DNA of 33,770 nucleotides from Paracoccaceae bacterium (GCA_036735505.1 DAINOF010000001.1:4559-38328), one strand, 5' to 3'; counted from the first letter of the stretch, positions 5,024-26,423 are shown. Translations and numbers: made by a program. Notes: generated by a model from the letters alone, not told the origin.

Positions 5024-5167
5024 TCAGTGTCTTACAGGCTGGATCAGGAAGCGCGCGTCCGGCAGGAACGCGGACAGGAAAGTCATCATCTCGACGGCGT
5101 CGGATATCTTCCCGAAGCAGTAGACGAGGATGTCCCTGCCATCCTCGGCGACCCGAAGTTCCACCAT
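5024..5167 (-). CDS. unlisted small ORF, 47 aa, hypothetical
   Basis: Reverse strand: GGAGG (5175-5179), 7 nt spacer, ATG (5167), then MVELRVAEDGRDILVYCFGKISDAVEMMTFLSAFLPDARFLIQPVRH and TGA (5024-5026). About 39 of 47 codons end in G/C, which fits host coding bias. It falls below the ORF-track length cut-off. Confidence 0.45.
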   Translation of the reverse strand: MVELRVAEDGRDILVYCFGKISDAVEMMTFLSAFLPDARFLIQPVRH

Positions 5168-5242
5168 CCCACAGCCTCCACCCACCCGGCTTGCGTAAAA
5201 GCATCTTCATATTGGGGCCCAGACCACCCTGGCGTCAACGCT

Positions 5243-5292
5243 TCGTTCAATCGTTCCGCCTAACGATGTGGGCGTTCCGATAGCAGGAACGG
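5243..5292 (+). promoter_or_regulatory. cluster of CGTTC(C) repeats, including a perfect inverted repeat, upstream of the orf141-pyp operon
   Basis: TCGTTC at 5243-5248 and 5251-5256. CGTTCCG at 5252-5258 and 5273-5279 (21 bp apart). Inverted repeat CGTTCC-N7-GGAACG at 5273-5291, ending about 37 nt before the ATG at 5328. Confidence 0.3.
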
Positions 5293-5327
5293 ACAATGCC
5301 GAACGCCGCCGAAAGGAGCTTCTCCGC

Positions 5328-5753
5328 ATGAAGGAACTTGGGCAAATCTTCGAGGTCGAGGGGCGATACGAGTTTCGCTACGCCGACCTCAACCTCATCG
5401 TCCGCGGCGATCATCCCGAATGGGTGCTTCAGGCCGCCAGCGAGGTGCTGGGCAAGACGGCCCGCCTCGAGACCGAGAGCAAGATCGACGAGCTGTGTTC
5501 ACTCGTCGAGTTCGAGGCCGCGACCGAAACCGAGGTCGACGCTGCCAAATACGCTCTCAAGGAACGCTTCGAGATCATCCCCCAGTGCATCGTGAGCATG
5601 GGCCGGATGGACTACCGCTGGGCCGCGGAAGAAGCGCGCAGGAAACTGGACCCGGAGTTCGGCAACCAGCCGATCAAGAGAATCCACGACATGTCGCTGA
5701 CCATGAACGACTCGTTCCTCGCGAACGAGCCCGGTGTCGACCTTTCCGAATAA
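5328..5753 (+). CDS. hypothetical protein (141 aa) immediately upstream of pyp
   Basis: AAAGGAG at 5312-5318, then ATG at 5328 (MKELGQIFEVEGRYEFRYADLNLIVRGDHPEW...). No family recognised. It ends 30 nt before pyp on the same strand. Confidence 0.65.
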   Translation: MKELGQIFEVEGRYEFRYADLNLIVRGDHPEWVLQAASEVLGKTARLETESKIDELCSLVEFEAATETEVDAAKYALKERFEIIPQCIVSMGRMDYRWAAEEARRKLDPEFGNQPIKRIHDMSLTMNDSFLANEPGVDLSE

Positions 5754-5783
5754 GCTCCCACTCCAGCCATCAAGGACCATACG

Positions 5784-6158
5784 ATGGAAATCATTCCCTT
5801 CGGCAGCCAGGACGTCGACAACATCCTGAGCCGTGAACCCCAGCGCGCCGAGTACCTTCCGTTCGGGGCCGTGCTTCTCGATCGGCAGGGCACGATCGTC
5901 AAGTACAACAAGGCCGAGAGCGTCATCGCCAACCGCAACCCGGCGGATGTCATCGGGAAGAACTTCTTCAACGAGATCGCGCCCTGCGCGAAGGGCAAGC
6001 GGTTCCACGGCGAATTCCTCAAGTTCCACCAGACGGGCCAGATCAACGTGATGTTCGACTACCGCTTCGCCTACAAGGGCGCGGATGTGGGCGTGCGGAT
6101 CCACCTGAAGTCCCAGCCCGACGGCCAGTTCTGCTGGCTCTTCGTCAAGCGCGCCTGA
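5784..6158 (+). CDS. pyp: photoactive yellow protein (PAS-fold xanthopsin photoreceptor)
   Basis: The 124-aa product aligns along its full length with the Halorhodospira PYP sequence as I remember it (MEHVAFGSEDIENTL...QYNAAEGDITGRDP..VIGKNFFKDVAPC...WVFVKRV). Here: MEIIPFGSQDVDNIL...KYNKAESVIANRNPADVIGKNFFNEIAPCAKG...CWLFVKRA. The chromophore Cys codon TGC is at 5985-5987. Equivalents of Tyr42, Glu46 and Arg52 are present. Confidence 0.95.
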   Translation: MEIIPFGSQDVDNILSREPQRAEYLPFGAVLLDRQGTIVKYNKAESVIANRNPADVIGKNFFNEIAPCAKGKRFHGEFLKFHQTGQINVMFDYRFAYKGADVGVRIHLKSQPDGQFCWLFVKRA

Positions 6159-6174: not shown

Positions 6175-6753
6175 ATGCAGGGCGCGGTGGCCCCCGACCA
6201 CGTGGTCACGGTCTCGGCCGAATTGCGGCACCTGCTGTCGCTCGCCGGCCTGCCGCGCAAGCCCCGCCCGGGCTCCGGACCCGACGAGGGCCCCGGCGCC
6301 GCGCCGGCCGCCGGCGACCAGACCGGGGAGTGCCCGGGCGCGGCGTCGGGTCCGCCGCGGGTCGATGTCCTGCTCCGGCGCGACGGCGGCAGGCCACTGA
6401 AACTCCGGGGCATCCTCCTCGTCGACGCAGGCGCGGAGGGGCCCTGGGGGAGCTCACGCCTGCGCGTCTTCCTTGCCGACGACGGGCGCGCCGTCGCACA
6501 GATCGCCTATCTTCCCGACGAGACGCTGCCCGCGCGCCCGGTCTTCCGCGTCGCGAGGATCGGATCGGCCGAGGACCTGCACCGTTTCGTCGCCGAGACC
6601 GAACCCGCTCTGTGCTTCGCGGCGAGCTTCCTTCTGCCCGATGACCCTGCACGACACGCAACCAAGGACCGCCTGGCCCTGCCCGACTTTCTTCCCGGGC
6701 TCATGCGGCTCCGGCGAACCTCTCCTCCCTCACGCGAAGGACTGCATCCATGA
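6175..6753 (+). CDS. hypothetical protein, paralog 2 of the LRRxGxxPxxFxG family, with a low-complexity N-terminal extension
   Basis: The core VDVLLRRDGGRPLKLRGILL...RLRVFLADDGRAVAQIAY...AEDLHRFVAET matches the other two paralogs. The N-terminal ~60 aa is Pro/Gly/Ala-rich, so the true start is uncertain. Its stop overlaps the next start (ATGA at 6750-6753). Confidence 0.5.
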   Translation: MQGAVAPDHVVTVSAELRHLLSLAGLPRKPRPGSGPDEGPGAAPAAGDQTGECPGAASGPPRVDVLLRRDGGRPLKLRGILLVDAGAEGPWGSSRLRVFLADDGRAVAQIAYLPDETLPARPVFRVARIGSAEDLHRFVAETEPALCFAASFLLPDDPARHATKDRLALPDFLPGLMRLRRTSPPSREGLHP

Positions 6754-7238
6754 CCCCGACCCTCACGATGACCGACGGCTATTCCCGCACGGCGGACATG
6801 CCGAGTCTCGGCAGCGGCACCACCCACCGGATCCGGCGTCAGGGCGCGCGGCCGCTCGCCTTCACCGGCACGGAGCTGGCGATGGCGATGAGCTTCACGC
6901 CGACGCTGCCCTACTGGTACGAGATCACGATCTACCGCACCAACACCCAGGCCTTCGTGCTCGCCATCCGACTCTTCCATGTCTCGGAGGACGAGAAGGA
7001 CCAGTCGGATGCCTGGACGTTCGACACTCTTCCGGAGGTGCTCGACGCGATTGAGACCTATGATGCGGGTCGCGACGTCGTCGCGGACATTGTCAGCCTT
7101 CCCTCGGACGCGCCTGCAATCGAGCTTGCCGCACGGGCGATGGATCTGCGCGCCCGCGTCAGCGCCGCGCGCCACCATTTCGCCGGCCTGGTCGGCGAGC
7201 TTTTCGCCGAGCTCGACATCGCCGCAGAGGCCGCGTGA
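6750..7238 (+). CDS. hypothetical protein, paralog 3 of the LRRxGxxPxxFxG family
   Basis: HRIRRQGARPLAFTGTEL, YEITIYRTNTQAFVLAIR, VLDAIETY and IELAARAMDLRARV align block by block with ORF 3484..3960. Coupled on both sides: ATGA at 6750 and GTGA at 7235. Confidence 0.65.
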   Translation: MTPTLTMTDGYSRTADMPSLGSGTTHRIRRQGARPLAFTGTELAMAMSFTPTLPYWYEITIYRTNTQAFVLAIRLFHVSEDEKDQSDAWTFDTLPEVLDAIETYDAGRDVVADIVSLPSDAPAIELAARAMDLRARVSAARHHFAGLVGELFAELDIAAEAA

Positions 7239-8497
7239 CTACTCGGACGGACGCACCCCTGTCGGCTCCGGGCGACCTCGCGCCCGGCGCCTTCCTTTCG
7301 CCGGCGTCCGTCCGCCGCATCTGCATCGACCTGATCGGGGCCGAACAGGACCGGATGATCCGGGACAGGCGGCTCCAGGAGCGTCATCACATCGCGCGGC
7401 GGCTTCACGCTCCCGCGTCGAATGACGCCGACCTCGAGATCGGCGAGGAAGCGCTGGGCCTCGACAGCCTCGCGCGGCTCGACCTCGTCGGCTCGGTAAG
7501 CCGGTTCTTTTGCCTCGCCGACACCGGCGCGGAGGACCTCCTCCTCGTCCATCGCGGGCTGCGCGACTGGGTCCGGATCGTTTCGGCGCATCTCGACCGG
7601 GTCGGGGCGACCGCGCGGATCGGCTTCGAGACGTCAGGCAGCACCGGCACCCCAAAGAGGATCGTTCATGCCGGCCGTGACCTTGACGCCGAAGTGGCGG
7701 AGGGCCTGGGGGTCGTCCTCGGCCACTCGGCGAAAGGAGCGCGGTTCCTCATCGCCGTCCCGCCAAGGCACATCTACGGCTTTCTCTGGGGCACACTGCT
7801 GCCCGATCGGGCAGAGGGCGCTGTGATCGACCTGCAGCACTCGGTGGGAGAAGCCCTGTTCCGGCACTGCCGCCCCGGCGACGTGGTCATCGGCACACCC
7901 TTCACGTGGGAACGTGCCGCCCGTCGGGGACAGACCCTCCCGCGAAGCGTGACGGGCCTGTGTTCGGCCGGACCGTCCACCCCCGCGACATGGGAGGCAG
8001 CGGACCGCCTGGGCCTCGACAGGTTCGTCGAGATCTACGGCTCGACCGAGACGGGCGGCGTCGGCTGGCGGCAGCGGCCGGACGAGCCGTTCCGTCTCTC
8101 GGCGCGGCTCGACCGTCACGGCGCGGGACTTCGGCGGCGATCGGACGGTGTCGAGCTTGCCTTGCAGGACCGCCTCGACTGGCGTGGAAACGACAGCTTC
8201 GACCTTGCGGGACGGCGCGACGACGTGGTGCAGGTCGCCGGCACCAACGTGAGTATCGGCCGTGTCGCCCTGCTCCTCGGCGGTGTGGACGGTGTCGCCG
8301 AAGCTGCGGTGCGTCTCGACGGGGAGCGACTGAAGGCCCTGATCGTCCCTGAGGATACGGGCGCGGGGACCGAAGACCTCGAAGTGGCGCTGCGCGACCG
8401 CGCCGCGCGCAACCTCGACGCGCCGGCGCGCCCGGATCGGTATTCCTTCGCCGCCGCCATGCCACGGAACGCCATGGGAAAACTCGCCGACTGGTAA
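7235..8497 (+). CDS. pcl: p-hydroxycinnamate (p-coumarate):CoA ligase, short adenylate-forming enzyme
   Basis: AMP-binding motifs FETSGSTGTPKRIVHAGRD and YGSTETGGVGWR, plus a C-terminal MPRNAMGKLADW. About 420 aa with no extra domains. Lies in the pyp operon, as in Rhodobacter pyp loci. Confidence 0.8.
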   Translation: MTTRTDAPLSAPGDLAPGAFLSPASVRRICIDLIGAEQDRMIRDRRLQERHHIARRLHAPASNDADLEIGEEALGLDSLARLDLVGSVSRFFCLADTGAEDLLLVHRGLRDWVRIVSAHLDRVGATARIGFETSGSTGTPKRIVHAGRDLDAEVAEGLGVVLGHSAKGARFLIAVPPRHIYGFLWGTLLPDRAEGAVIDLQHSVGEALFRHCRPGDVVIGTPFTWERAARRGQTLPRSVTGLCSAGPSTPATWEAADRLGLDRFVEIYGSTETGGVGWRQRPDEPFRLSARLDRHGAGLRRRSDGVELALQDRLDWRGNDSFDLAGRRDDVVQVAGTNVSIGRVALLLGGVDGVAEAAVRLDGERLKALIVPEDTGAGTEDLEVALRDRAARNLDAPARPDRYSFAAAMPRNAMGKLADW

Positions 8498-8499
8498 GT

Positions 8500-8707: not shown

Positions 8708-11527
8708 ATGACGATGACAGCAAAGACAGTGCCGGACCCATCGCCCGAGGAAAGGCTGTCGCGTGTCGCTGCCGCGTTTGCCCAGCACGCCCTCGCAAGA
8801 TCGCTCACGCTCGTGTTCGACGCGGCGACGAAGTCTCTCTGGCACGCCAGCGGTGATGCGATCACGCTGCTGGAACTGTCGGAGGACATGCTGTCCGCCG
8901 CGGGCTTCCTCGACCTGTGCGGCGCCTCGGACCAGGACATCGCCGACATCTGGTGGGCGCTCGCGGCCGGGGGGAGCGCCGAATGGTCGGGCCACCTGAC
9001 CGCCAGCCTCTCGTCGACGCGGACGCCCGCGCGATTCGAGGCCGTCTTCGCGGCGACCGGAGAGGGCGAGGGAAGCGTCGTCGTCGTCGCCCGGAAACTG
9101 CATGCCGAGCAGGGGGCGCTCGCAGCGACCATGACGGCGGCAGGCCCATGGACCGCGCTGCAGGAGGTCGTCGGCGTCATAGAATACGACACGGACGGCA
9201 ACGTGCTCAGCGCAAACGACCGAGCCGCCATGGCGCTCGAATATGTCGACGAGCTCGCGGGGCGCAACCACGAGGCGCTCTGGCCGCAATCGCGCACGGC
9301 GACGCCCGACTACATCGAATTCTGGGAGAAGCTGCGGCAGGGCCGGATCGTCGAGGGACGGCACCCGCACCGGTCGGCGGAGGGCGGGGAGCTCTGGTTC
9401 CAGTCGACTTTCGTTCCCGTCCGCGGCGAAGACGGCAGGGTCGCCCGGGTCGTGCAGTGCCTCATGGACGTCACCGAGGAGGCCGGCAGGGCCGCGCGCG
9501 ACCGGATTCTGCTCGACGCCGTCTATGGCGGTCTTCCAGTTCTCGAATACGACCTCGAAGGGCATGTCGTCTCGGCCAACGCGGCGATGCTCGATGCGCT
9601 CGGCGAGACGGCAGAAGAGGTCGGCGGCAAGCACAGCCGGCGCCTGCTGGACGCGGAGTTCGCGCGCATGCCGCGCTTCATCGAGGCGTGGAACATCGCG
9701 CTCGAGGGCGTCGCGCAGATCATCGACATCCACCACCTGCGCAAGAACCGCGTCTCGCTGTGGACCCGAAGCGCTCTCCTTCCGCTGAAGGACCCTGCCG
9801 GCGCGGTGCAGCGGGTGATGGAGATCGCCGTCGACATCCACGGCCTGCAGGAGCGACTGACCAACCTCGAGATGCTCTACGGTGCCGCCAACGCCGCACT
9901 TCCCATCCTCGAGATCGACCTGTCGGGAAAGATCCTGTCGGCGAATGACGCCGCCTGCAGCCTGTTCGACGTCAAGTCGTCCGCCCTCGCCGCCGTCAAC
10001 TTCCGGACACTCGTGCCGAGCGACTTCGGCAGCTCGAAGAAGTACCAGACCTTCTTCGACCGCCTCGCGCGGGGAGAGACGATTTCGGGCGCCTTCAAGC
10101 GGATCAGGCCCGACGGTCAGGTCATCTGGGTGCGCGGACATCATGTCCCGCTCGTCGCCGAGGGGCAGGAGGTTCCGCAGCGCATCCTCGTGCTGATGAC
10201 AGACATCACCGGGGAAAGCGTCAGCCTCGTCGAGGCAGAGGGCAAGTTCGCCGCGATCGAACAGTCCCTGGCGCTCGCCCAGTTCGACATCGACGGGACC
10301 GTGGACTGGACCAACAGGAAGCTCGAGGACGCGCTCGGCCACAGCGCGCTGGACCTGAAGGGGCGCGCGATCGCGAGCCTCCTGCCGCCGGATGACGTCG
10401 ATCGGAACCGCACCCGGTGGGAAACGCTGCGAAACGGCGAGTCCGTCGATATGGACATGCGACTCATCGGCAAGCAGGGCAATGACGTCTGGCTGAACGG
10501 GACCTTCAACCCCGTGCTCGACGACGGCAAGGTGGTGCGCATCATCGCCGTCGCGTCGGTCGTTACCGAGCGGAAGCTGCGCGTACACGACCTCGAGGCG
10601 AACTGGGCAGCTGCAACGCAGGCGGTCCCGCTGGCGGAGTTCGACCCGGACGGCCGCATCGTCTCGGCGAGCGAGGGCTTCCTGCGGATGGTCGGCTACT
10701 CCCTGCGGGAGATCGTGGGCCAGCACCACAGCATGTTCTGTTCGGCCGATCACGTGCGCTCGGCCGACTATCGCGACTTCTGGCTGTCGCTGGGCAAGGG
10801 CGAGGCGCGGAGCGGACGCTTCAGCAACGTCGGCCGGTTCGACCGCGACATCCACATCGATGGGAGCTATGTCCCGATCCGCGGGACCTCGGGCGACGTC
10901 ACCAAGGTCCTGATGTTCGGCCACGAGGTGTCCGATCACGTCGGCCTGCGGCAACTGGCCGTCGACACGGTCGAGCATGTGCGGGAGGCGGTGCAGGAGG
11001 TGCTTCAGGCGCACGCGAGGCTGCGCAGCGCCGCGACCGAAGTCGCCTCGAGCCTCGAGGGCGAGCGCAGCGCCATAGAGACGGGCTCCACGGCGCTGGC
11101 CGGGGGTGTGGCCGAGATCGATGCCGTGGCCGGCGCGGTGGACAGCGTGGCCCGGGTCACAGAGGTCCTGCGCGACATCGCCATCCAGACGAACCTGCTC
11201 GCCTTCAACGCCGCCATCGAGGCGGCGCGGGCCGGCGAACACGGCATCGGCTTCTCGGTCGTCGCCGACGACGTCCGGAAACTCGCCGAGAACAACTCCG
11301 AGGCCGCGCGCGACATCTCGCGGCATCTGCAGACCGTGGCGCAGGGTCTGGCGCGTACGCGCGACGCGGCCAGCAGGACGCTGGGGATGGTGGGCGACGT
11401 GGCTTCCGATCTCGATGTCCAGACCGAACGGGTCTCGGGTCTCGCCGACACCTCCGATGTCCACGTCAAGGCGGCCGATGCGATTGCGAAGGCCATCGAC
11501 AGGCTCCGCACCGCGGCCGTCGCGTGA
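8708..11527 (+). CDS. soluble multi-PAS (about six PAS/PAC repeats) methyl-accepting chemotaxis protein
   Basis: No hydrophobic TM segment is visible. PAS-like units recur, each starting with a pattern such as [56 protein letters not shown] or [14 protein letters not shown]. The C-terminus carries the MCP hairpin-tip signature [38 protein letters not shown]. The start may be ATG 8714, which has better spacing from GGGAG at 8702-8706. Confidence 0.85.
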
Positions 11528-12939
11528 TGCCGGCCGAAACCCGGACGAAAGTGCGGCTGGGGCTGATGACGACCGGCGGCATCACCGTCGGGGTGGACGT
11601 GACTTGCGTCGCCGAGGTGTGCCGGGTCCGGAGCATCTCGCCGATCTTTGCCGCCGCCCCCGGTCTTCTCGGGGCCATCGATCTGCGCGGGGATCCCATC
11701 CCGCTCTTCGATCCAAAGGCGCTCGCGGGGCTCGGGCAGTCAGGCTCCTCCCCCGACCTGGCGGTGATCGCCTCCGGAGAGGGGCGTCGCATCGCGCTTG
11801 GCTTCGACACGATCGAAGGGCTGACCGAGGTCGGCACGAACCGGCTCGCGGCCGCGAGGGGTGTCGGCGGATCGGCTTTCGCAGGCACGCTCGAGGATCG
11901 CGGCCGCATCGTCAGCCTTCTCGATCCCCGCCCGATCCTCGCCCGCACGGACATCCCGTCCGCGACCGTGGCGACCGCCAGCGAAACGCGAGGCGCCGTC
12001 GGCGCGACTTCCCACCTGACGGTGGAGTCGGGCAGCGCGCGCTTCGGCATCGTGGCGACGGCCATCGAAGCCACCGTCCCGCGCCAGACGATCGAACCGC
12101 ACAGCCTCGCGAACGGCGCCTGGCTCGGGATCATCGGCCATTATGGCCGGAGGGTCCCGGTCATGCATCTGAACGCGGTTCTCGGACTGGGCGAGATCCG
12201 CGATCTCGGCACCGCCGAGATCGTGATCCTGCGGCTCCCCGGCGACCGGCTCATCGGCTTCGCCGTCGAGATGATCTGCCGCATGGAGCTTGTCCCCCTC
12301 GCCGGGGAGGCCCCCTTGCCCGCGCTGCTGGCCGGGCGGACGGCAGCGATCCGCTCGGTCCTGCCGGACGGGTCGGGAGGCGATACATTCCTCGTCGACG
12401 TCGACGCCCTCGGCGCGGACGAGGCGCTGCTGGGGATCGCGAGCCTCTCCGTCGAACCCGCCGCGGCGACCTCTGCGGGGACGCGCGCCGCCGCGGCCGA
12501 GGAGGGCGCGCGTTCCGAACGCGAGCGGTATCTCGTCGCGCGGGCGGGGGCGCCCATCGCGATCCCGATCTGCCAGGTCGCGCGGATCGCCAAGCCTCCA
12601 GAACGCGTCACGGCCTTGCCGAGGGCGCCGGACTGGGTCCGCGGGGTGTTTCGCGAGGCAGGCGCCCCCGGCCCCCTCGTCGACCTGCGGCATCGCCTCG
12701 GTTATCCGCCGGCCGAGGCCATGGAGCGGTCGCGCGTCCTGATCGCCGGGTCGGCATCCTCGCCGATCGGCTTCATCGTGGAGGGTGTCGATCACCTCGA
12801 ATGGTCGGACTGGCGGTCCGACGGCCGGCAGGAGGGCATGATCAACGGCGTGGTGTCCCTGCCACGCCTCGGCGCGCAAAGCGTGATGCCCCTCGTCGAC
12901 CTGACCCGCATCGCGGCGACGCTTGAAGGGCTTGCGTGA
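11524..12939 (+). CDS. triple CheW-domain scaffold protein
   Basis: Three CheW-like units: [17 protein letters not shown]...[18 protein letters not shown]; [17 protein letters not shown]...[18 protein letters not shown]; and [21 protein letters not shown]...[20 protein letters not shown]. The start overlaps the MCP stop (GTGATG at 11524-11529). Confidence 0.8.
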
Positions 12940-13940: not shown

Positions 13941-13956
13941 ACCCGGGGGATCGAGC

Positions 13957-14181
13957 ATGCAGCGTCCCAAGACCTCTCCGATGCGGCGTCCCGCGGCCAT
14001 GTCCGGCAAGGCCGCGCGAACGCCGAAGGAGGCCGCCATCCATCTCGTCCGGCTCGAGTTCGACCGCAGCAGGATCCAGATCGGCCTGAGGCAGGCCGAG
14101 ATGCGGGCCGATCTCTACCGGGCCGAAGATGCCGCCATCGAGCGGCGACGGCGCGCGCTGCTCGACATCCTCACGCGCTGA
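13957..14181 (+). CDS. small basic coiled-coil protein in the gvpN-to-gvpO position (possibly GvpV-like)
   Basis: 74-aa product MQRPKTSPMRRPAAMSGKAARTPKEAAIHLVRLEFDRSRIQIGLRQAEMRADLYRAEDAAIERRRRALLDILTR. Its position after gvpN matches gvpV in other clusters. The assignment rests on position and size only. Confidence 0.4.
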   Translation: MQRPKTSPMRRPAAMSGKAARTPKEAAIHLVRLEFDRSRIQIGLRQAEMRADLYRAEDAAIERRRRALLDILTR

Positions 14182-14203
14182 CCCTCCCCAAGGAGCCACG
14201 TCC

Positions 14204-14512
14204 ATGGAACACCCGGCACCCGACGTCTTCAGCAGCAAGCGCAAGGCCGCCGGCGTCGGCCCGACCGAGGCCATCGAGGCGGCCCGGCGCGCCATCTCGG
14301 CGACCGGGCACGCCGACATCGACGCCGTCGCCGCCTGCGAGGCCGTCGAGGACGGATCCTGGCGGGTCGAGGTCGAGGTGGTGGAGAGCCACGCGAGGAT
14401 GGGCGACAACGATCTCATCGCCGCCTTCGACGTGCGCGTCGCCGAGACGGGCGAAGTCCGCGGCTTCCGCCGCCTGCGCCGCTACTTCCGGGAAGACGGG
14501 CCGCAGACATGA
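14204..14512 (+). CDS. gvpO: gas vesicle protein GvpO
   Basis: AGGAG at 14191-14195, ATG at 14204. The product ends ...WRVEVEVVESHARMGDNDLIAAFDVRVAETGEVRGFRRLRRYFRED, typical of GvpO C-termini. Confidence 0.75.
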   Translation: MEHPAPDVFSSKRKAAGVGPTEAIEAARRAISATGHADIDAVAACEAVEDGSWRVEVEVVESHARMGDNDLIAAFDVRVAETGEVRGFRRLRRYFREDGPQT

Positions 14513-18467: not shown

Positions 18468-19366
18468 TGCGGCGCGAACTCGTGGCCATCCTTCCCGGCG
18501 AGGGTCCGCCGACCCCTCCCGAGGGATGCACCGTCGTCCGCGCGGCGAAACATGCCGCGGTGCTTCGGTGGAGCGGTCTCCTGCCGGCACCACGCAAGGC
18601 CGACGCACTGCGCGCCGCGGCGGCACGGGCGCGCATTCTCGAGACGCTGATGACCTCGGGCACGGTGCTGCCGGTCCTGCCCGGCCAGCGCATCCGCGCG
18701 TCGGAGGCCGAGCGGCTCGTGACGGCGAACCTTCCCGTGCTCGAACGACTGGCGTCCCAGTTCGCAGGACGCCGGCAGTTCCAGATCACGCTGCGCTGGG
18801 ACGTGACGCGGGCCGTCGCCCGGTTCGGCGCTTCGGAGGGCGCGGCGGCCGCAGACGCCGCGGGTCCAGCCATCGCCGCGCGCCTGCGGGAGCGCGTGGC
18901 GCAGGCGCTCGAGGACACCGGTGCCGAGGTGATGATGCTCCCCGTGGCCGAAGATGTGGTGGCCAACGCGGTCGTGCTTGTCGACGCGGCGTCGGAACCG
19001 CTGCTCGACGCGGCGCTCGCCGAGATCGACGGTCTGTGGACCGAGGGGTTCCGCATCAGGATGATCGGCCCCTATCCGCCGGTCAGCTTCGCCTCGCTCG
19101 TCTTCGACCGGATGGACCGGCGTCAGATCGAGGAGGCGCAGGCGGCCTTCGGCCTCGACCCTGGCTTCTCCGAAACCGCGCTGCGGCAGGCCCGGCGCGA
19201 GGTCATCATGCAGGCGGGGGCGGACCGGCACGAGGCGCTGCGCCGGCAGGCCGACCTGCTCGCCTGCGTGGCACGGCTTGGAGGGGCCTGCGCCCGGGTC
19301 CACGTCGCCCGCGTCTGGAGCGAAGGACTGTCCTCGGCCACGGCCGCCCGGGCGCGCGCAGCATGA
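18464..19366 (+). CDS. gas vesicle protein GvpF/GvpL family (copy 2)
   Basis: RILETLMTSGTVLPVLPG, FRIRMIGPYPPVSFA, and length and layout typical of GvpL. Confidence 0.75.
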   Translation: MMRRELVAILPGEGPPTPPEGCTVVRAAKHAAVLRWSGLLPAPRKADALRAAAARARILETLMTSGTVLPVLPGQRIRASEAERLVTANLPVLERLASQFAGRRQFQITLRWDVTRAVARFGASEGAAAADAAGPAIAARLRERVAQALEDTGAEVMMLPVAEDVVANAVVLVDAASEPLLDAALAEIDGLWTEGFRIRMIGPYPPVSFASLVFDRMDRRQIEEAQAAFGLDPGFSETALRQARREVIMQAGADRHEALRRQADLLACVARLGGACARVHVARVWSEGLSSATAARARAA

Positions 19367-20064
19367 CGGGGCGCCCGCTCCTCCTCCTCGGCCTCGTGCC
19401 CGCCGGATCCCATCCCGCGGCGCAGGTGCCGCCCCACCGCCGCATCGCCTGCGAGCCGGACCTCGTCGCGATCGCCCTCGACGCGCCGGAGGATCCGGGG
19501 GACAACCCCGAAGAGGCGGCGCTGGGACTCGCCGTCCTCCAGGCCACGATCCTGTCCGTCTATGCGGAAGCGGGCGACGTCCTGCCCGTCGCGCTCGGCG
19601 CCGCGTTCTCGGATCCCCGCGCGCTCATCGCGCATCTGATGCTCCATGCGGACCGCATCGCGGCCGAACGCGGCGCGCTCGCGGGATCGGCCGAATATGT
19701 CCTCGCGATCGACCGGCGCGCGCCGCCCCCGCGGGCGGTCCCCGCGTCCGGACCCTCCGGCTACCTCCGGCAGCGCCTGGCCGAGCGCAACGTCCGCCGC
19801 GACCTCGAGGACGACAGGCGCGCCTTCGCCGCCACGGCGCTCGCGGCGCTTCGGTCCGCGGGTGCGGAGCTTGCGCTGCCGCGGACGCCGGCGCCGACCG
19901 TCCTCCTCTCGGTTTCGGCGCTCCTGCCGCGTCCGGCGGTCGCGAAGGTCGCGGACGCACTGGCCGACATGGCGACCAAGGCGGCAGCCCTCGGGCTCGC
20001 CATGCGCATGATCGGGCCCTGCGCCCCGTTCAGTTTCGTGTCGTCGGATCGACCCGATGCATGA
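19363..20064 (+). CDS. gas vesicle protein GvpF/GvpL family (copy 3)
   Basis: LQATILSVYAEAGDVLPVALGAAF and LAMRMIGPCAPFSFV. ATGA overlap at 19363. Confidence 0.7.
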   Translation: MTGRPLLLLGLVPAGSHPAAQVPPHRRIACEPDLVAIALDAPEDPGDNPEEAALGLAVLQATILSVYAEAGDVLPVALGAAFSDPRALIAHLMLHADRIAAERGALAGSAEYVLAIDRRAPPPRAVPASGPSGYLRQRLAERNVRRDLEDDRRAFAATALAALRSAGAELALPRTPAPTVLLSVSALLPRPAVAKVADALADMATKAAALGLAMRMIGPCAPFSFVSSDRPDA

Positions 20065-20278
20065 CCGCGCCGGCGAGATCCGCATCGCCTCGGCGGAAGA
20101 CGCGCTGCAGAGCCGGGAAGGCCGTCTTGTCGATCTGGTCGATTCGCTTCTCGACAAGGGCGTCTGCCTGAGGGGGGAACTCTGGCTGTCGGTGGCGGAT
20201 GTGGACCTCGTCTTCGTCGGGCTTGATCTCGTCCTCGGCAGCCATGACACGATCTCGCGCACAGGCCGGCGCGCATGA
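20057..20278 (+). CDS. GvpA-family small protein (GvpS/GvpM-like)
   Basis: LVDLVDSLLDKGVCLRGELWLSVADVDLVFVGLDLVL matches the GvpA-family core (LxDxLDKGxxxxGxxxxSxxxxxLxxxxL). 8-nt overlap with the upstream gene. Confidence 0.7.
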   Translation: MHDRAGEIRIASAEDALQSREGRLVDLVDSLLDKGVCLRGELWLSVADVDLVFVGLDLVLGSHDTISRTGRRA

Positions 20279-20919
20279 GGGCGCTGGGCTGGACACTGCC
20301 AGGCGAAGCGGCACCCGATGGTCTTGCAACGGTCGATCTCGACACCTGCGCGGTGGTCGTGGCCGCCGATGCGGCCGGCGCGCAACCGCGGGACCTGATG
20401 CGGCTGCAGATCGCTTGCGCGCGCCACCTCCCTGCCTTCCTGCCGCTCGCGCCGAACGGCGTCACGACGCTCGCCGCGGCGCTCGACACGGGCCGCACCC
20501 GCAGCGCGGCGATCGCCGCCCGCCTCGAGGCACTGCGGGGTCTCGTGCAGGTCTCGCTGCGCGCCGACTGGTCCGCCCCGTCCGCGGACGGATATCCCTC
20601 GCGCCCCACGGCCACGCCCGGCCGGGGCTGGCTCGCTGCGCGCGCGGAGGTCCGGCGCCGGAACGAGGAGCAGAGGGTTCGCATCGCAGCAAGCCTTCGT
20701 GCCGTCCTCGCAGCGCATGCGACCCGGGGGCTCGTCGAACGGAACGCGCCCACCATCCTGCGGCTCGACGCGCTCATGCCGGCTGAAGCGGCCACGCCCG
20801 TGGACGGGCTGGCCGACGCGCTGGCCGGGCGCACGGACTTGCGCGACGCGCGGCTGGTGCTGACGGGGCCCTGGCCAGCGCTCGCCTTCGCGGATCTGCC
20901 GGAGGCCGGGCCATGCTGA
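20275..20919 (+). CDS. divergent GvpF/GvpL family protein (copy 4)
   Basis: The C-terminal ARLVLTGPWPALAFADL matches the GPWPPYSF motif. Overall size and position fit. ATGA overlap at 20275. Confidence 0.6.
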   Translation: MRALGWTLPGEAAPDGLATVDLDTCAVVVAADAAGAQPRDLMRLQIACARHLPAFLPLAPNGVTTLAAALDTGRTRSAAIAARLEALRGLVQVSLRADWSAPSADGYPSRPTATPGRGWLAARAEVRRRNEEQRVRIAASLRAVLAAHATRGLVERNAPTILRLDALMPAEAATPVDGLADALAGRTDLRDARLVLTGPWPALAFADLPEAGPC

Positions 20920-21248
20920 ACGCTGACGACCCTCTCGCCGTGGACCCGGAAGATATCCGGGAGGCGCTGGCGGCGATCACCCGGAGCGGCCGGGTCAGGA
21001 TCGATCCCGACCGGGTCGAGCAGGACCTCGCCCGCCTCGTGCTGGGACTGGTCGAGTTCCTGCGACAGCTGATGGAGCTTCAGGCTATCCGCCGGATGGA
21101 GAACGGCACGCTGACGCCCGAACAGGAAGAACAGGTCGGAATGACGCTCATGCGCGCCGAGGGTGCGATCCATGATCTCGCCGGCAAGTTCGGCCTCTCG
21201 CCCGGCGATCTCGCGCTCGATCTCGGCCCGCTCGGCCGCACGATCTGA
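20913..21248 (+). CDS. gvpK: gas vesicle protein GvpK
   Basis: RIDPDRVEQDLARLVLGLVEFLRQLMELQAIRRMENGTLTPEQEEQVGMTLMRAEGAIHDL...LDLGPLG is the canonical GvpK pattern. Confidence 0.9.
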   Translation: MLNADDPLAVDPEDIREALAAITRSGRVRIDPDRVEQDLARLVLGLVEFLRQLMELQAIRRMENGTLTPEQEEQVGMTLMRAEGAIHDLAGKFGLSPGDLALDLGPLGRTI

Positions 21249-21306: not shown

Positions 21307-22881
21307 GTGCCCCGGGATGACGCTCGCCAGAAGGCGGTCTTCGAACTCGCCGATCGGATCGGTCTCGCCGACGCCAACGCGGTGGTCGACGGCACTCTGC
21401 GTCTCGCCCTGTCGCCTGCGGCGCGGGCGCGCTGCGCGCGGTCGCAGGACCGGCTGGCGCGGATCATCGCGGAGGGTCGGCATGTCTATGGCCTGACGAC
21501 CGGCTTCGGTCCGCTCGCGAACCGGCTGATCGGGCCCGGACAGGGTGTAGAGCTCCAGCAGAACCTGATCCATCATCTGGCGAGCGGCCTCGGCCCCCCT
21601 CTGTCCTGGCCCGAGGCCCGCGCGGTCGTTCTGTCGCGGCTCGTGTCGATCTCCCGCGGCGCCTCGGGGGCCTCGTCCGAGACCATCGCGGCGCTCGAGG
21701 TCCTGCTCGCCTCGGATCTCGCCCCTGCCCTGCCATCGCGTGGCACGGTCGGCGCCTCCGGCGATCTCACGCCGCTCGCGCATCTCGCCCTCTGCCTTCA
21801 GGGCCGCGGGTCGTTCCTGACGCGGGACGGGGCGGCTGTGCCTGGCACCGCGGCGCTCGCGCAACTCGGGCTGCAGCCTCTGTCGCTCGCAGCGCGCGAC
21901 GGCCTCGCGCTTGTGAACGGAACCTCGGCCATGACCGGGATCGCGCTCCGCAACGCGCAGACCGCCGGGCGCAGCGCCGGCTGGGCGCTCGCCCTGACGG
22001 CAGCGGCAGCCGAGTGCCTCGCCGCGCGGGCGGAGGCGTGGAGCGCCGAGGTCTCAAGTCTGCGACCGCATCCGGGACAGGTCCGGGCGGCCGCCATCCT
22101 GCGCGACCGGATCGCGGGCAGCGAACGGGTCGAGAAGCGCCCCCTCGCCCTGCGTCGGCTCGGCGTGGACGGTGTCGCGGTCGAGGCGACGGCCGGGCAG
22201 GACGCCTATTCGCTGCGCTGTGTCCCGCAGGTCGTCGGCGCCTTCCTCGATCAGCTCACCTGGCACGATCAGGTGGTCGAGACAGAGCTGAATGCGGTGA
22301 CCGACAATCCCGTCCTGCCTGAAGATGGCGAAGCGCCGGCCCTGCACGGGGGCAACTTCATGGGCCAGCATGTGGCCCAGGTCTCGGACGGGCTGAGCGT
22401 CGCGGCGACGGTGCTCGGGGGACTCGCCGAGCGCCAGATCGCCCGGCTCACGGACGAGAAGCTGAACGCGGGCCTGCCGGCCTTTCTCCATGGCGGCGCG
22501 GCAGGTCTCAATTCGGGGTTCATGGGCGCGCAGGTCACGGCGACGGCGATCGTGGCGGAGATGCGCGCGACCGGGGCGGCCTCGATCCATTCCGTGTCGA
22601 CGAACGGCGCGAATCAGGATGTCGTCTCGCTGGGGACGATCGCCGCAAGGCTCGCCGCGGCGCGCCTCAGGAACGTCGCCGAGATTCACGCGATCCTCGC
22701 GCTCTGCGTGGCGCAGGCGATGGAGCACCGCGGCGGACCGGAGTGCCGGGGCTTCTCGCCTGCCGCGCGGGCCGTCCACGCGGCAGTACGGACTGTGAGC
22801 CCTTCACTCGTGACGGACCGTCCGCTAGCGGAGGAGATCGAGATCATGACGCAGGTCGTGGCCTCGGCACCTCCCCCGTAA
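21307..22881 (+). CDS. tal: tyrosine ammonia-lyase (MIO-dependent aromatic amino-acid ammonia-lyase)
   Basis: GGAGG at 21295-21299, then GTG at 21307. GTVGASGDLTPLAH is the MIO-forming Ala-Ser-Gly. NLIHHLASGLG carries the His-Leu selectivity pair (H90/L91, codons 21574-21579) that I recall for Rhodobacter TAL. Near-colinear with the R. sphaeroides TAL sequence as I remember it (YGLTTGFGPLANRLI, QDAYSLRC, NAVTDNPV, ALHGGNFMGQHVA, NQDVVSLGTIAARL). Confidence 0.9.
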   Translation: MPRDDARQKAVFELADRIGLADANAVVDGTLRLALSPAARARCARSQDRLARIIAEGRHVYGLTTGFGPLANRLIGPGQGVELQQNLIHHLASGLGPPLSWPEARAVVLSRLVSISRGASGASSETIAALEVLLASDLAPALPSRGTVGASGDLTPLAHLALCLQGRGSFLTRDGAAVPGTAALAQLGLQPLSLAARDGLALVNGTSAMTGIALRNAQTAGRSAGWALALTAAAAECLAARAEAWSAEVSSLRPHPGQVRAAAILRDRIAGSERVEKRPLALRRLGVDGVAVEATAGQDAYSLRCVPQVVGAFLDQLTWHDQVVETELNAVTDNPVLPEDGEAPALHGGNFMGQHVAQVSDGLSVAATVLGGLAERQIARLTDEKLNAGLPAFLHGGAAGLNSGFMGAQVTATAIVAEMRATGAASIHSVSTNGANQDVVSLGTIAARLAAARLRNVAEIHAILALCVAQAMEHRGGPECRGFSPAARAVHAAVRTVSPSLVTDRPLAEEIEIMTQVVASAPPP

Positions 22882-22893: not shown

Positions 22894-23106
22894 TCAGGCC
22901 GACGCGGGATCGACCGTCAGGCCCACGGCCTCGGCATATTTCAGCCAGCTTTCGATGGAGGCCACAACGGCCCTCACCTCGATGGCGATCAGCTCGATCC
23001 CCACCAGCGACACGCGGACGAAGGCGTCGATGACGATGCCCTTGTCCAGGATGCGGTCGACCACTTCCGCGATGGACGCGGACGCAACACTTTTCTCGAT
23101 AGCCAC
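22894..23106 (-). CDS. gvpA: major gas vesicle structural protein GvpA
   Basis: AAGGAGG (complement of 23112-23118), 5 nt spacer, GTG at 23106. The product [64 protein letters not shown] closely matches the consensus GvpA sequence as I recall it. The ORF-track start at 23151 is probably too far upstream. Confidence 0.95.
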
Positions 23107-23227
23107 CACGGCCTCCTTGTACGATGATGCGCACCCTGACTGGATGCGCAAAAGAGGCTAGCTTGAGACGTCCTAAGGTCTCATGAACAAGAGAGATTTG
23201 CGAATACGCCTGCGTCGGGCGCTGGTG
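23107..23227 (-). promoter_or_regulatory. lower-GC gvpA upstream region with repeats (candidate promoter/operator)
   Basis: Direct repeat GATGCGCA at 23126-23133 and 23143-23150, each containing the palindrome TGCGCA. Inverted repeat GAGAC-N8-GTCTC at 23165-23182. Visibly less GC-rich than the flanks. Confidence 0.3.
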
Positions 23228-24190
23228 TCACGCGACGTGCAGGCGCCGATTCTCGGCGACGATCTCGGCCACGGTCATGCGCATGTCGCGCAGCGTTTCC
23301 TCGATCGAGGCGCGGCGTCCGCGCGCATCCTCTTCGAGCGCCCCTGCGAGGAGCAGGGCGAGATGGTCGAGCCGGCCCGCGATCGAGGCGATCTCTGGGG
23401 GCGTCGCGGCGGGTGGTCCGGCCCCGATGGCCCGGGCCAGCGCGCCGATCCGGTCGCCGAGCAGTCCGAGCGAGGTCTCGAGACCGGCAGAGGGGCTGGC
23501 GGCGGAGGGTTCGGCCGGCGGCGGCTGCTCGCCCTTCGCATCCAGCCGGGCCTCGACCGCCTCGAGGCGGGCGGCGAAGGTGCCGAGCGCCAGCACGATC
23601 TCCTGCGCCGCCGCCTCCTGTCGCCCGAGCGTCGTCTGGAGCGCCGCGGCGAAGCCGGCGAAGCTGCGGTGCTGGGCCGTGAGATCGGGCGCGGGTGCGG
23701 GCCGGGTCGCGATCCGCTCGACCGCGGCGACAAGCGCCGCATGCCGCGTCTCGGTGCCGGAGGCCGCGTCCGCGATCGCCCGCTCGAGCCCGTCGAGCCG
23801 CGCCGCCAACGCGTCCAGTCGCCGCTCACCTTCTGAGTCGTCCCGGTCCGTCGGGCGGACCGGGTCGTGCGACAGGTGTTCGACCGCCGCCTCGATGCGG
23901 TCGAGACGGTCGCGCAGGCTGCCCGCGGGCACCCCGCCCGCGTGGATCATCCCGGGTTCGAACTGCTCGATGATGACGAATTCAAGCTGATCGAAGCGCT
24001 CGGCCAGGCGTTCGATCCGCATGTCGAGGTCGGCGGCCTGCCCGGCATCGCCGCGCTCGGCGCCGGCCGCATCCAACGCATCGGAAGGACCGCGCCCGGG
24101 AACGCCGGCGGCCGCGCGCTTGGCGAGGCTGAAGCAGATCGCGGGCGATGTCGCGTCCAAAGCATCGGTGACTGGCGTCTGATCGTTCAT
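23228..24190 (-). CDS. repeat-containing coiled-coil protein, unknown function
   Basis: Likely start MNDQTPV (ATG at 24190). An RL(D/E)xLExx motif recurs at least six times: RIERLAERFDQLEF, RDRLDRIEAAVEHL, RRLDALAARLDGLERAI, AARLEAVEARLDA, GDRIGALARAI, AGRLDHLALLL. The repeats are separated by Pro/Ala linkers. Confidence 0.6.
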   Translation of the reverse strand: MNDQTPVTDALDATSPAICFSLAKRAAAGVPGRGPSDALDAAGAERGDAGQAADLDMRIERLAERFDQLEFVIIEQFEPGMIHAGGVPAGSLRDRLDRIEAAVEHLSHDPVRPTDRDDSEGERRLDALAARLDGLERAIADAASGTETRHAALVAAVERIATRPAPAPDLTAQHRSFAGFAAALQTTLGRQEAAAQEIVLALGTFAARLEAVEARLDAKGEQPPPAEPSAASPSAGLETSLGLLGDRIGALARAIGAGPPAATPPEIASIAGRLDHLALLLAGALEEDARGRRASIEETLRDMRMTVAEIVAENRRLHVA

Positions 24191-24284
24191 GTTGCACTCC
24201 CGCTCATGAACTCCAGCTTTGCAGCCTGCCATGACTTCCTTAAGCGGGTGTTGAGGGCCGCGACCATCCCGGGCATCGGCGGCC

Positions 24285-26423
24285 TCAGGCGGGCTGCGCG
24301 CGGATCCGCTGAAGATCGGGCCGCTCGACGATCCAGTGGCGCAGCTCCTGCTCGGGGAGCGCGGAGCAGTAGAGGTGGCCCTGCAGCACGTCGCAGCCGA
24401 CGCGGCGCAGGGCCCTTGCCTGCAGTTCGGTCTCGACGCCCTCGGCGGTCATATGGATGCCGAGCGATCGCGCCATCTGCCCGATCGCCCGCAGGATCGG
24501 GCTTTCCCGCGGGACGTCGGACTCCACGACGCCCACGAGCTGCTGGTCGATCTTGATGCGCTTCGGCTTGATCTTGAGAAGCGTGGTGATCGAGGCGCGC
24601 CCCGAGCCGAAGTCGTCGATCTCGATCTCGACCCCCCTCTCCCTCAGTTCGTCGAGGACGAAGGCGAAGGCGTCCGAGCCCCGGTCGAAATCGATCGTCT
24701 CGAGAAGCTCGAAGGCGATGCGGCAGGGCCAGGTGTCCGCACCGCCGAGCTGGCGGCCGAGGTTGCTGTCGGCGAGCCGCCGGTAGCTCACGTTGACCGA
24801 GAGCTTCGGCATCGGGATGCCGTCGGCCTTCAGCCGATGCGCCATGGCCAGCGCCTTGGTCAGGATGATCTCGTCGATCTCGGACATCAGCCCCAGATCC
24901 TCGGCGACGGGCAGGAAGAGGGACGGGGGCACCAGACCCTCGACCCTGTGGGGCCAGCGGACGAGCGCCTCGACGCCGATGAACTCGCGCGTGTCGGCTG
25001 CGACCTGGGGCTGGAAGTACGGCAGGATCTCGTCGTCGGAAAGCGCCTTGACCAGCTCGTCGGCGATCCGCTTGCGCTTCTTGGCCAGCGCGCGGAGGCG
25101 CGGCGTGAAGACGGCGCTGCGGTTGCGGCCCTCGCCCTTCGCCTCGTAGAGCGCGATGTCGGCGTCGTTGAGCAGCGCGGCGGCCAGGTGCGGCGCGCCG
25201 CTCGCGATCCCGATGCTGGCGCCGACGTGAAGCTCCTTGTCGCCGTAGCGGATCGCCTCGCGGCACCGCGCGATGATCCGCTCCGCCACGGTGCTCGCGA
25301 AGTCGTCGCGGGGCGGCGCGATGAGGACGAGGACGAACTCGTCGCCGCCGACGCGCGCGATGAGGTCGCTCGGGCGCACGCAGTCGGTCAGCACGCCCGC
25401 GATGTGCCGGATGACGTGGTCGCCCGCCGGATGCCCGAAGGCGTCGTTGATCGACTTGAAGTGGTCGAGGTCGACGTGGAGGATGCTGACCGTAGCGTCC
25501 TTGACCACCGTGCCGGCCAGCGACCGCAATTTGTCGTCGAGCGCGCGGCGGTTGCCGAGGCCCGTCAACGGATCCGTTATCGACGCGACCTGGGCGTCAC
25601 GCCGCGCGCACTCCAGCGCCTCGGCGTTTTCGGCGAGCTGCCGCTTCTGGCGCTTGAGCTCGGTCACGTCCATCCGGAAGCCCACTGTGTCGCCATTGGC
25701 GGTGCGGACCTCGTGGATCCTCAGGTGCCGGTCGCCGGGAAGCACCTGCTCGATGGCGCCGACGGGGTTGCGGTGCTGGTGCATCCGCTTTTCGATCCAT
25801 TCCGCCTCACGTCCGATCGCCTCGGGGTACTGTCCGAGCTCGACCCCGAACTTCAAGACGTCCTCGAACTGCACTCCAATTCGAAGCACCGAAGCGGATT
25901 CCGCATAAACTTCGTGGTAGCAGCGGTTGAACGCCACGAGCCGATCCTCGGGATCGAAGATCACGAAGGCCTCGGGGATGGCGTTGATGGCGTCCCAGAG
26001 CCGTTGCTGCGCCCGCTGCGCGTTGCGGTTCGCGCTTTCGAGGTCCTGCTTCAGCTGCACATGCGCGGTGATGTCCCGCTGCACGCCGACCCAATAGTGG
26101 TACCATCCGGTCTCGTCCTTGATCGGGGTCAGCGAGAGGTCGACCCAGAACGGGAACCCTTCCTTGCGGTAGTTGAGCAACTGCCCGCGCACGCGGGACC
26201 AGGCGGCGATACCCTCGCGGATACGGCCGACCGTCTCGGCATCGGTACCCGGACCCTGCAGCATGCGGGGCGACTTGCCGCGCACTTCGGCGAGCTCGTA
26301 GCCGGTCTGCTCGGTAAATGCCGCATTGCACCAGACGATCAGCGGCTGTGCGCTCGCGTCGGTGATGATGATCGCGTCGGTGATGGCGCCGGCAAGGCGT
26401 CCGACGAGGGCCTCGAGATTCAT
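24285..26423 (-). CDS. LOV-like PAS / PAS / GGDEF / EAL c-di-GMP turnover protein
   Basis: The N-terminal PAS reads GKSPRMLQGPGTDAETVGRIREGI...LLNYRKEGFPFWVDLSLTP...YWVGVQRDIT (LOV-like, but Pro replaces the adduct Cys). A second PAS (IPEAFVIFDPEDRLVAFN) follows, then RVGGDEFVLV (intact GGDEF) and GVEALVRW (intact EAL). Confidence 0.9.
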   Translation of the reverse strand: MNLEALVGRLAGAITDAIIITDASAQPLIVWCNAAFTEQTGYELAEVRGKSPRMLQGPGTDAETVGRIREGIAAWSRVRGQLLNYRKEGFPFWVDLSLTPIKDETGWYHYWVGVQRDITAHVQLKQDLESANRNAQRAQQRLWDAINAIPEAFVIFDPEDRLVAFNRCYHEVYAESASVLRIGVQFEDVLKFGVELGQYPEAIGREAEWIEKRMHQHRNPVGAIEQVLPGDRHLRIHEVRTANGDTVGFRMDVTELKRQKRQLAENAEALECARRDAQVASITDPLTGLGNRRALDDKLRSLAGTVVKDATVSILHVDLDHFKSINDAFGHPAGDHVIRHIAGVLTDCVRPSDLIARVGGDEFVLVLIAPPRDDFASTVAERIIARCREAIRYGDKELHVGASIGIASGAPHLAAALLNDADIALYEAKGEGRNRSAVFTPRLRALAKKRKRIADELVKALSDDEILPYFQPQVAADTREFIGVEALVRWPHRVEGLVPPSLFLPVAEDLGLMSEIDEIILTKALAMAHRLKADGIPMPKLSVNVSYRRLADSNLGRQLGGADTWPCRIAFELLETIDFDRGSDAFAFVLDELRERGVEIEIDDFGSGRASITTLLKIKPKRIKIDQQLVGVVESDVPRESPILRAIGQMARSLGIHMTAEGVETELQARALRRVGCDVLQGHLYCSALPEQELRHWIVERPDLQRIRAQPA

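Follow-up and report, generated by a model that had tools for sequence, protein, structure and literature searches.

The DNA analysed here is a 33,770-nt stretch from a Paracoccaceae bacterium (GCA_036735505.1, DAINOF010000001.1:4559-38328; the whole stretch is referred to as the window), and it carries a 23 kb cluster in which the gene for photoactive yellow protein (PYP) and the genes of its chromophore pathway are joined to a full gas-vesicle (gvp) gene set (Table 1). Genes were called from the guanine-plus-cytosine (G+C) content at codon positions and then checked against homologs; the G+C content is ∼70% over the window and drops locally to 0.61 around orf141 and pyp. The original prediction, made from the sequence alone, had proposed a candidate light-to-buoyancy system with extra signalling genes, and all the genes it named are present where it placed them. 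Its left boundary, position 5024, is indeed a gene end, that of the minus-strand orf53, and the conserved cluster reaches further left to take in orf158 and an acidic helix-hairpin-helix (HhH) protein (3484-5003). From orf141 through tal the genes are co-linear. Thirteen of the 20 same-strand junctions overlap, by 1–8 nt, which favours co-transcription, and the only sizeable same-strand gaps are those between pcl and the chemoreceptor gene (8497/8708, 210 nt), between the triple-CheW gene and gvpN (12939/13011, 71 nt) and between gvpK and tal (58 nt); these spacings, like the 12 nt between tal and gvpA, are exactly as first quoted.

The PYP is of the Rhodobacter type (TIGR02373, 177.4 bits against a cutoff of 143.05, with a Pfam PAS match too) and is 94% identical to the PYP of Roseivivax. 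In an alignment of 14 homologs the pocket residues Tyr41, Glu45, Arg51 and Cys68 are invariant (Tyr42, Glu46, Arg52 and Cys69 in H. halophila numbering), and Thr50 is replaced by Ala, likewise in the other aligned sequences, that of C. sphaeroides included. The p-coumarate-CoA ligase (pCL) scores 374.5 bits against the 334.7-bit cutoff of TIGR02372, and the tyrosine ammonia-lyase (TAL), whose best match in the PDB is R. sphaeroides TAL (2O6Y, E value 2.9e-189), keeps both the ASG (4-methylideneimidazole-5-one, MIO) triad and the His-His-Leu (HHL) motif of Tyr selectivity. As read from these sequences the locus is a self-sufficient predicted line to holo-PYP, in which TAL would make p-coumarate, pCL would activate it and Cys68 of PYP would receive it.

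For comparison, all window proteins were mapped onto 80 species-level genome loci carrying this PYP subtype, each with a 10 kb flank on either side (loci are designated by L numbers below). On the gas-vesicle side, gvpN, gvpO, gvpJ, an HSP20 gene, four gvpF/L genes, gvpG, gvpS, gvpK and gvpA all match Pfam or NCBIfam models; GvpA together with GvpF/L, G, J, K, a small protein of the GvpM/S type, O and N, the set by which a gas-vesicle gene cluster is recognised, is complete. GvpA itself reaches 115 bits against the cutoff of 100 for NF006874; the location and minus strand first given for its gene stand, and its most likely start is a GTG at 23109, giving 71 aa. The gvpN-gvpK order of the window recurs in ∼40 loci, and in 32 loci the gene for the Cdc48-type ATPase lies inside the gvp operon, so that this ATPase, which the original prediction had counted among the extra signalling genes, is a regular and standard member of this gvp operon type. 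Between gvpN and gvpO, orf74 is conserved in 23 loci (42–57% identity); it matched no family and is probably an unnamed gas-vesicle accessory protein. In L094, a close relative of the window cluster, gvpN is apparently missing and the triple-CheW gene is followed immediately by an orf74 homolog and gvpO (8335-9101). The C-terminus of the cc334 product shares 41% identity with the protein that comes after gvpA in both L085 and L086; weaker matches adjoin gvpA or gvpK in five other loci, and a positional counterpart of 397 aa lies between gvpK and gvpA in L095. Most simply, cc334 encodes a fast-evolving, gvpA-linked vesicle-associated protein.

Genes of the gvp set lie within 10 kb of pyp in 62 of the 80 loci, in at least six gene orders: pcl is followed by gvpN in 39 loci, and by the chemoreceptor gene, the triple-CheW gene and then gvpN in three; the gvp operon lies upstream of orf141 in eight; gvpN is divergent and upstream in five; an inverted gvp operon follows pcl in three, including R. 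capsulatus; and only gvpA is visible in four. The gvp operon itself often ends with tal, and only five gvp-free loci have at least 5 kb on both sides. This is strong comparative backing for the link between PYP and buoyancy with which we began. The co-occurrence of the other neighbours in PYP genomes, which had been put forward as a check, is found for the gvp genes and, as a gvp gene, for the Cdc48-type ATPase, and is not found for the GGDEF-EAL gene, which has no ortholog there. Most of the loci come from one order, the Rhodobacterales, and many have the same gene order, as would suit a linkage inherited by common descent or by transfer of one genomic island, with PYP and vesicles functionally unrelated. 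We regard such hitchhiking as highly improbable, since the linkage is also kept in Beijerinckiaceae, Methylobacterium, Rhodoblastus, Parvularculaceae and metagenome-assembled genomes of Caulobacterales, in differing gene orders, and has persisted while the neighbours diverged: median identity is 81% for PYP, 52% for orf141, 47% for orfX2 and 41% for pcl, and most cluster proteins stand at 30–55%.

The linkage as such is already known, and it is far more general than reported. For R. capsulatus it goes back to Kyndt et al. 2004 (Biochemistry 43:1809), who, according to the papers citing that work (PMC3646047, PMC3594816), proposed a role in buoyancy; Vollmers et al. 2013 found pyp in a gas-vesicle context in Loktanella sp. 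SE-62, and the buoyancy idea for PYP has been repeated in reviews. The R. capsulatus locus in our set (L049) and the citing literature agree with what the original prediction had stated of it, a pyp/tal/pcl locus beside gvp genes described in about 2004. The linkage in the window is not tighter than this, contrary to what had been claimed: in L049 the gvp cluster encloses pyp, pcl and tal, which stand between gvpA and gvpK, with PAS-MCP genes on the flanks (MCP, methyl-accepting chemotaxis protein). R. capsulatus has the same orf141–pyp–orfX2–pcl module as the window and a PYP of the same subtype (79% identical), and its tal, gvpA and gvpN–gvpK lie within ∼17 kb, with the PAS-containing MCP genes at the edges. 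It differs in that its gvp operon is inverted relative to pyp, whereas the window is co-linear from orf141 to tal, in having neither a Cdc48 gene nor a triple-CheW gene, and in its adjacent MCP, which has two PAS domains and is only 25% identical.

The conserved core on the photoreceptor side is a four-gene module, orf141–pyp–orfX2–pcl, with orf141 present in all 80 loci and orfX2 in 76. Where gvp genes are absent, the module is retained among housekeeping genes; orf141 and orfX2 therefore follow PYP, not the vesicles. They are the best universal candidates for a PYP partner, orfX2 being alternatively a candidate maturation factor, and as universally linked orphans they are new; the original prediction had passed over them, as it had the CtrA boxes and the LOV-type domain described below. 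Neither matches a Pfam or NCBIfam model or, by sequence, a PDB entry. The orf141 family has ∼175 relatives, all unnamed, among them UniProt O54072 of C. sphaeroides, a species whose PYP is also close to that of the window (88%). In an AlphaFold2 model of orf141 (predicted local distance difference test, pLDDT, 74) a sheet of three strands at the N-terminus and two long helices are modelled with confidence; the C-terminal half is of low confidence, yet conserved in sequence. The model gave no Foldseek match at E <1, and a profile search against the PDB gave 2VQC as a marginal match only (E 0.11). For orfX2 the corresponding profile search found nothing; the single-sequence AlphaFold2 model was poor (pLDDT 58), and its weak resemblance to the DnaK substrate-binding domain (E ∼0.08, template-modelling score 0.3–0.4) was set aside as unreliable.

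The reading we prefer, to which we assign a probability of roughly 0.55, is that of an alphaproteobacterial (Rhodobacter-type) gas-vesicle cluster carrying its own photoreceptor unit, in which light input from PYP would most likely pass through the universally linked orf141 and/or orfX2, and in which the chemoreceptor and triple-CheW protein would be accessory.

The motif TTAA-N7-TTAA is the CtrA box of alphaproteobacteria. The window holds no perfect box and three with one mismatch, against 0.02 expected, all of them intergenic; when up to two mismatches are allowed, eight of 12 sites fall inside the 886 nt of cluster intergenic DNA, including sites 40 nt upstream of the MCP gene, upstream of gvpN and upstream of gvpA. 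The CtrA half-site TTAACCAT gave no match. Among the relatives, against a background rate of 0.085 boxes per kb, a box is present in 19 of 35 pcl–gvpN spacers, in all three pcl–MCP spacers, upstream of orf158 in 17 of 28 loci, upstream of orf141 in 21 of 78 and upstream of gvpA in five of 14, and L095 has perfect boxes between the triple-CheW gene and tal and upstream of its cc334 counterpart. In C. sphaeroides, both gvpN expression and the visible gas vesicles require CckA/ChpT/CtrA, a dependence that the boxes ahead of the relatives' gvpN fit (PMC11999139, PMC9430884, citing Hernandez-Valle 2020); those vesicles have been seen by electron microscopy (PMC9430884), and the CtrA studies did not address PYP or light (PMC9430884, PMC11999139). 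In R. capsulatus, RegA, CtrA and FnrL affect gvp genes along with flagellar, MCP and cyclic di-GMP (c-di-GMP) genes (PMC5359404, PMC7232146). The CtrA-type boxes of the cluster, which are new, would mark its promoters, in keeping with what has been published on CtrA control of gas vesicles in relatives. Under our preferred reading the cluster would be transcribed from several CtrA-dependent promoters, within the same CtrA programme that in relatives also accounts for flagella and chemotaxis, and such joint transcription would have PYP made together with the gas vesicles, giving them a blue/UV-A input.

The same boxes at several promoters, and the joint presence of flagellar, MCP, c-di-GMP and gvp genes in the CtrA regulons of relatives, could also be explained by co-regulation only: the cluster would be an island of a CtrA dispersal programme (float, swim, sense), and PYP, the MCP–CheW pair and the GGDEF-EAL protein would each serve some other output, for instance flagellar phototaxis, c-di-GMP or biofilm. 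The PYP outputs known elsewhere are phototaxis and biofilm, and at least five species keep the four-gene PYP module without gvp. Co-regulation needs no physical linkage, yet in 62 of 80 species pyp and tal have remained in or beside gvp operons despite at least six rearrangements; we consider it an unlikely account of the cluster as a whole.

Between pcl and gvpN the window has a gene for a soluble chemoreceptor (Pfam MCPsignal, E 4.9e-26) with neither a transmembrane segment nor a HAMP domain, and with a short signalling hairpin in which the tip motif is present. It was first described as a 6xPAS-MCP; the MCP assignment holds, and Pfam resolves five PAS domains, the sixth, N-terminal one being unverified. 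Its stop codon is overlapped by the start codon of the gene for the triple-CheW protein (CheW3), in which the first CheW domain alone shows similarity to a solved CheW (2QDL, E 5e-4). A word-indexed protein search gave 24 relatives of CheW3, and every context looked up had the MCP gene upstream and gvpN downstream; the impression that triple-CheW proteins are restricted to gvp clusters was overturned by an exhaustive profile search, which found ∼212 clusters (at 50% identity) of full-length triple-CheW proteins, and by two contexts without gvp. A metagenome scan with a refined CheW3 alignment returned a single locus, identical to L082. Wherever upstream DNA exists, a homologous multi-PAS MCP precedes the triple-CheW gene, so that the two form an obligate two-gene module. 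In the metagenome contig L088 the PYP is 98% identical to that of the window and CheW3 only 55%.

The MCP–CheW3 module is found in five different settings within pyp/tal/gvp clusters, and elsewhere it has no gvp genes in its vicinity. It lies between pcl and gvpN in the window, L001, L003, L004, L082, L088 and L094; ahead of gvpN, with no pyp/pcl upstream, in L085; co-oriented with tal at the far end and convergent on gvpA in L095 (same contig as L016); divergent from tal in L019; and ahead of gvpA in L046. Its presence in five of the 80 loci is a lower bound: the L095 module sits about 20 kb from pyp, outside the 10 kb taken on either side in L016. The Cereibacter pyp locus (L009) yielded no MCP–CheW3 on a contig that ends shortly after pcl. 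In L085 and L086 (JGI 3300048839 and 3300048592) the order is MCP, CheW3, gvpN-gvpK, tal and gvpA, with unrelated genes in place of the upstream pyp/pcl and no Cdc48 gene; pyp is thus elsewhere in that genome or absent. An extra gene of 194 aa stands between pcl and the MCP gene in L083 (6553-7137) and L088 (6565-7149), where the window has its 210-nt spacer. Gene order indicates that the module was inserted between pcl and gvpN in the lineage of the window. An MCP with a triple CheW inside the operon, repeatedly captured by pyp/tal/gvp clusters, is new, because the survey of Dohmen et al. 2025 (PMC12826048) had MCPs as 12 PYP-MCP fusions and in none of 113 predicted pyp operons; in contrast to those fusions, the window has the gene for a single-domain PYP in one run of co-oriented genes with those for a distinct, soluble MCP and for CheW3. 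That survey contained no analysis of gas-vesicle genes, orf141 or orfX2 (PMC12826048).

That MCP–CheW3 would form the route from light to vesicle, as the original prediction had it, finds support in the recurrence of the pair at several independent pyp/tal/gvp positions; its necessity does not hold, since 39 loci have no such pair between pcl and gvpN and since it also exists outside gvp clusters. The explanation nearest to that claim is that PYP signals directly, the lit protein binding a PAS domain of the MCP, and that the array, by way of a kinase whose gene lies elsewhere, controls either vesicle formation or collapse or else phototaxis. Translational coupling of the module between pcl and gvpN would suit it, as would the five positions in pyp/tal/gvp clusters, one of them in a co-oriented unit with tal, a gene that serves only PYP, and the twelve natural PYP-MCP fusions of other bacteria (PMC12826048). 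In at least 12 further loci, too, pyp, pcl, tal or gvpA has a non-orthologous MCP gene as its immediate neighbour; these receptors are of unrelated types (PAS-PAS-MCP in R. capsulatus, MCP-PilZ, NIT-HAMP-MCP and HAMP-MCP), and their unrelated NIT, PilZ and HAMP sensors are a better fit for co-regulated taxis receptors than for a partner dedicated to PYP. In addition, the 39 loci with pcl directly before gvpN have no MCP–CheW3 within 10 kb of pyp, L085 combines the module and gvp with no adjacent pyp/pcl, the module is also found apart from gvp, and the window encodes no kinase or response regulator. On balance we do not expect direct PYP–MCP signalling to be correct, although it deserves to be kept in mind. 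That MCP and CheW3 form a dedicated cytoplasmic array which takes the PYP signal and, instead of flagella, governs gas-vesicle biogenesis or buoyancy is a quite unlikely possibility; were it true, it would supply the long-sought PYP transducer and a new organelle-level output of a Che-type array. In our preferred reading of a vesicle cluster with its own photoreceptor unit, MCP–CheW3 would be an accessory branch that probably plugs into CheA kinases encoded elsewhere, coordinating swimming with floating.

Among the chemoreceptors of other loci, the immediate neighbour of orf141–pyp or gvpA in L051 (7300-8832) and L068 (14418-16463) is an MCP whose C-terminal domain is PilZ, which binds c-di-GMP, and in L062, L069 and L073 the adjacent receptor has a NIT (nitrate/nitrite-sensing) domain.

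Several points weigh against the preferred reading. We know of no experiment that links PYP to gas vesicles in any organism, and all the functional steps, including the light-to-buoyancy function of the cluster, are inferred from gene neighbourhood. As candidate partners orf141 and orfX2 have no recognisable fold or domain, their role being positional only. The MCP hairpin and CheW are in place, but CheA, CheY, CheB and CheR are missing from the locus: no cheA, cheY, cheB or cheR gene was found in the 33.8 kb window or in L082, L085, L088 and L095. The window boxes before the MCP gene, gvpN and gvpA carry two mismatches, and the box at 24240 and the cc334 ribosome-binding site overlap. Finally, Rhodobacter-type PYP photocycles are in the millisecond range, unusual for a slow output such as organelle biogenesis (PMC12826048).

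The minus-strand end of the cluster includes a PAS-PAS-GGDEF-EAL gene. Both enzyme domains match Pfam (E 2.8e-41 and 9.4e-54), and the catalytic motifs are intact: RPSD…RVGGDEF, with the RxxD I-site, EALVRW, DDFGSG and EGVE. The first PAS domain (residues 1–140; 26004-26423, minus strand) is of the light-oxygen-voltage (LOV) type, with E values of 5e-31 to CagFbFP (6RHF) and 4e-31 to the YtvA family. It aligns end to end with the LOV photoreceptors YtvA, phototropin LOV2 and CagFbFP and keeps the Arg, the Gln, NYRK and the final GVQ. Where canonical LOV domains read GRNCRFLQGP, however, the window reads GKSPRMLQGP, so that the adduct-forming Cys is replaced by Pro, and canonical FWN is FWV, with one flavin-contacting Asn replaced by Val; the Cys of GXNCRFLQ by which a LOV sensor is recognised is thus absent from the window motif GKSPRMLQ. 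These two replacements exclude the canonical LOV photocycle and make flavin binding uncertain; judged by its residues the domain may be a second sensor, of light or redox and non-canonical in kind, or an ex-LOV domain. The occurrence of a Cys-less LOV-type GGDEF-EAL gene in such a cluster is new. The original prediction had taken it for a possible conserved neighbour, which it is not: GGDEF/EAL genes are found in seven other pyp loci with different N-terminal sensors and are not orthologs, which rules out a conserved ortholog in the compared loci, these stopping short of the far end in the closest relatives. In the preferred reading, that of a gas-vesicle cluster with its own PYP unit, this LOV-like enzyme would be a lineage-specific c-di-GMP side input, and cc334 would be a gvpA-linked vesicle protein.

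PYP is among the best-studied photoreceptors in biophysics. Its signalling partner and cellular output are still unknown in most bacteria (PMC12826048), and the 80-genome comparison narrows the search for a partner to orf141 and orfX2, the MCP–CheW3 module and c-di-GMP enzymes, and would tie the whole unit to CtrA control. C. sphaeroides, which offers genetic tools and has visible vesicles when CtrA is active, makes the 20-year-old light-to-buoyancy idea directly testable.

Table 1. Features of the PYP–gas-vesicle cluster in the window and CtrA-type boxes.
Feature	Position	Strand	Description
CtrA-type box, one mismatch	3429-3443		41 nt upstream of orf158
orf158	3484..3960	+	Conserved gene opening a two-gene unit with the acidic HhH protein; homologs beside pyp in 28/80 loci
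Acidic low-complexity HhH protein	3957..5003	+	C-terminal helix-hairpin-helix domain conserved in 40/80 loci
orf53	5024..5185	-	Small conserved gene, divergent from orf141; same-position homologs 39–59% identical in 30/80 loci
CtrA-type boxes, two mismatches	5195, 5235, 8654, 12950, 23173		Cluster intergenic
orf141	5328..5753	+	Orphan, 141 aa, directly upstream of pyp
pyp	5784..6158	+	Rhodobacter-type photoactive yellow protein
orfX1	6175..6753	+	Poorly conserved; 21/80 loci, 28–41% identity
orfX2	6750..7238	+	Orphan between pyp and pcl
pcl	7235..8497	+	p-Coumarate-CoA ligase, PYP activation family
MCP	8708..11527	+	Soluble chemoreceptor, five PAS domains (Pfam)
Triple-CheW (CheW3)	11524..12939	+	Three CheW stretches, E 6e-51
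Gas-vesicle assembly operon	13011..21248	+	gvpN, orf74, gvpO, gvpJ, HSP20 (GvpH-like), gvpF1, gvpG, Cdc48-type AAA+, gvpF2, gvpF3, gvpS, gvpF4, gvpK; Pfam/NCBIfam
orf74	13957-14181	+	74 aa, between gvpN and gvpO
Cdc48-type AAA+	16374-18467	+	Inside the gvp operon
tal	21307..22881	+	Tyrosine ammonia-lyase, last gene of the plus-strand unit
gvpA	22894..23109	-	Major shell protein; convergent with tal
cc334	23228..24232	-	Ala/Arg/Leu-rich, recurring R-L-D-x-L-E motif, directly upstream of gvpA
CtrA-type box, one mismatch	24240-24254		Upstream of cc334
PAS-PAS-GGDEF-EAL gene	24285..26423	-	LOV-type PAS (no photoactive Cys), PAS_7, GGDEF, EAL
CtrA-type box, one mismatch	26472-26486		49 nt upstream of the GGDEF-EAL gene

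A scan of the window against Rfam gave no match, and hence neither a c-di-GMP nor any other riboswitch; a scan of 4900-13100 for sigma-70 promoters and terminators gave nothing beyond chance, and 9-mers shared among the intergenic regions gave nothing meaningful. The stop codons of tal and gvpA are 12 nt apart (22882-22893) with no terminator-like hairpin between them, so that transcription of the 16 kb operon could run antisense into gvpA. At the other end, orf53, orf158 and the acidic HhH protein form a second conserved unit beside orf141 in 28–40 loci; the HhH gene probably starts at an ATG at 3957 that overlaps the orf158 stop codon, and its ortholog in L082 has a faint HHH_5 match. In most other genomes the orf158–HhH pair follows orf53 on the strand opposite to pyp, and relative to these (compared in L001-L045) the pair and its CtrA-type box are inverted in the window and in its closest relatives, L082 and L088.

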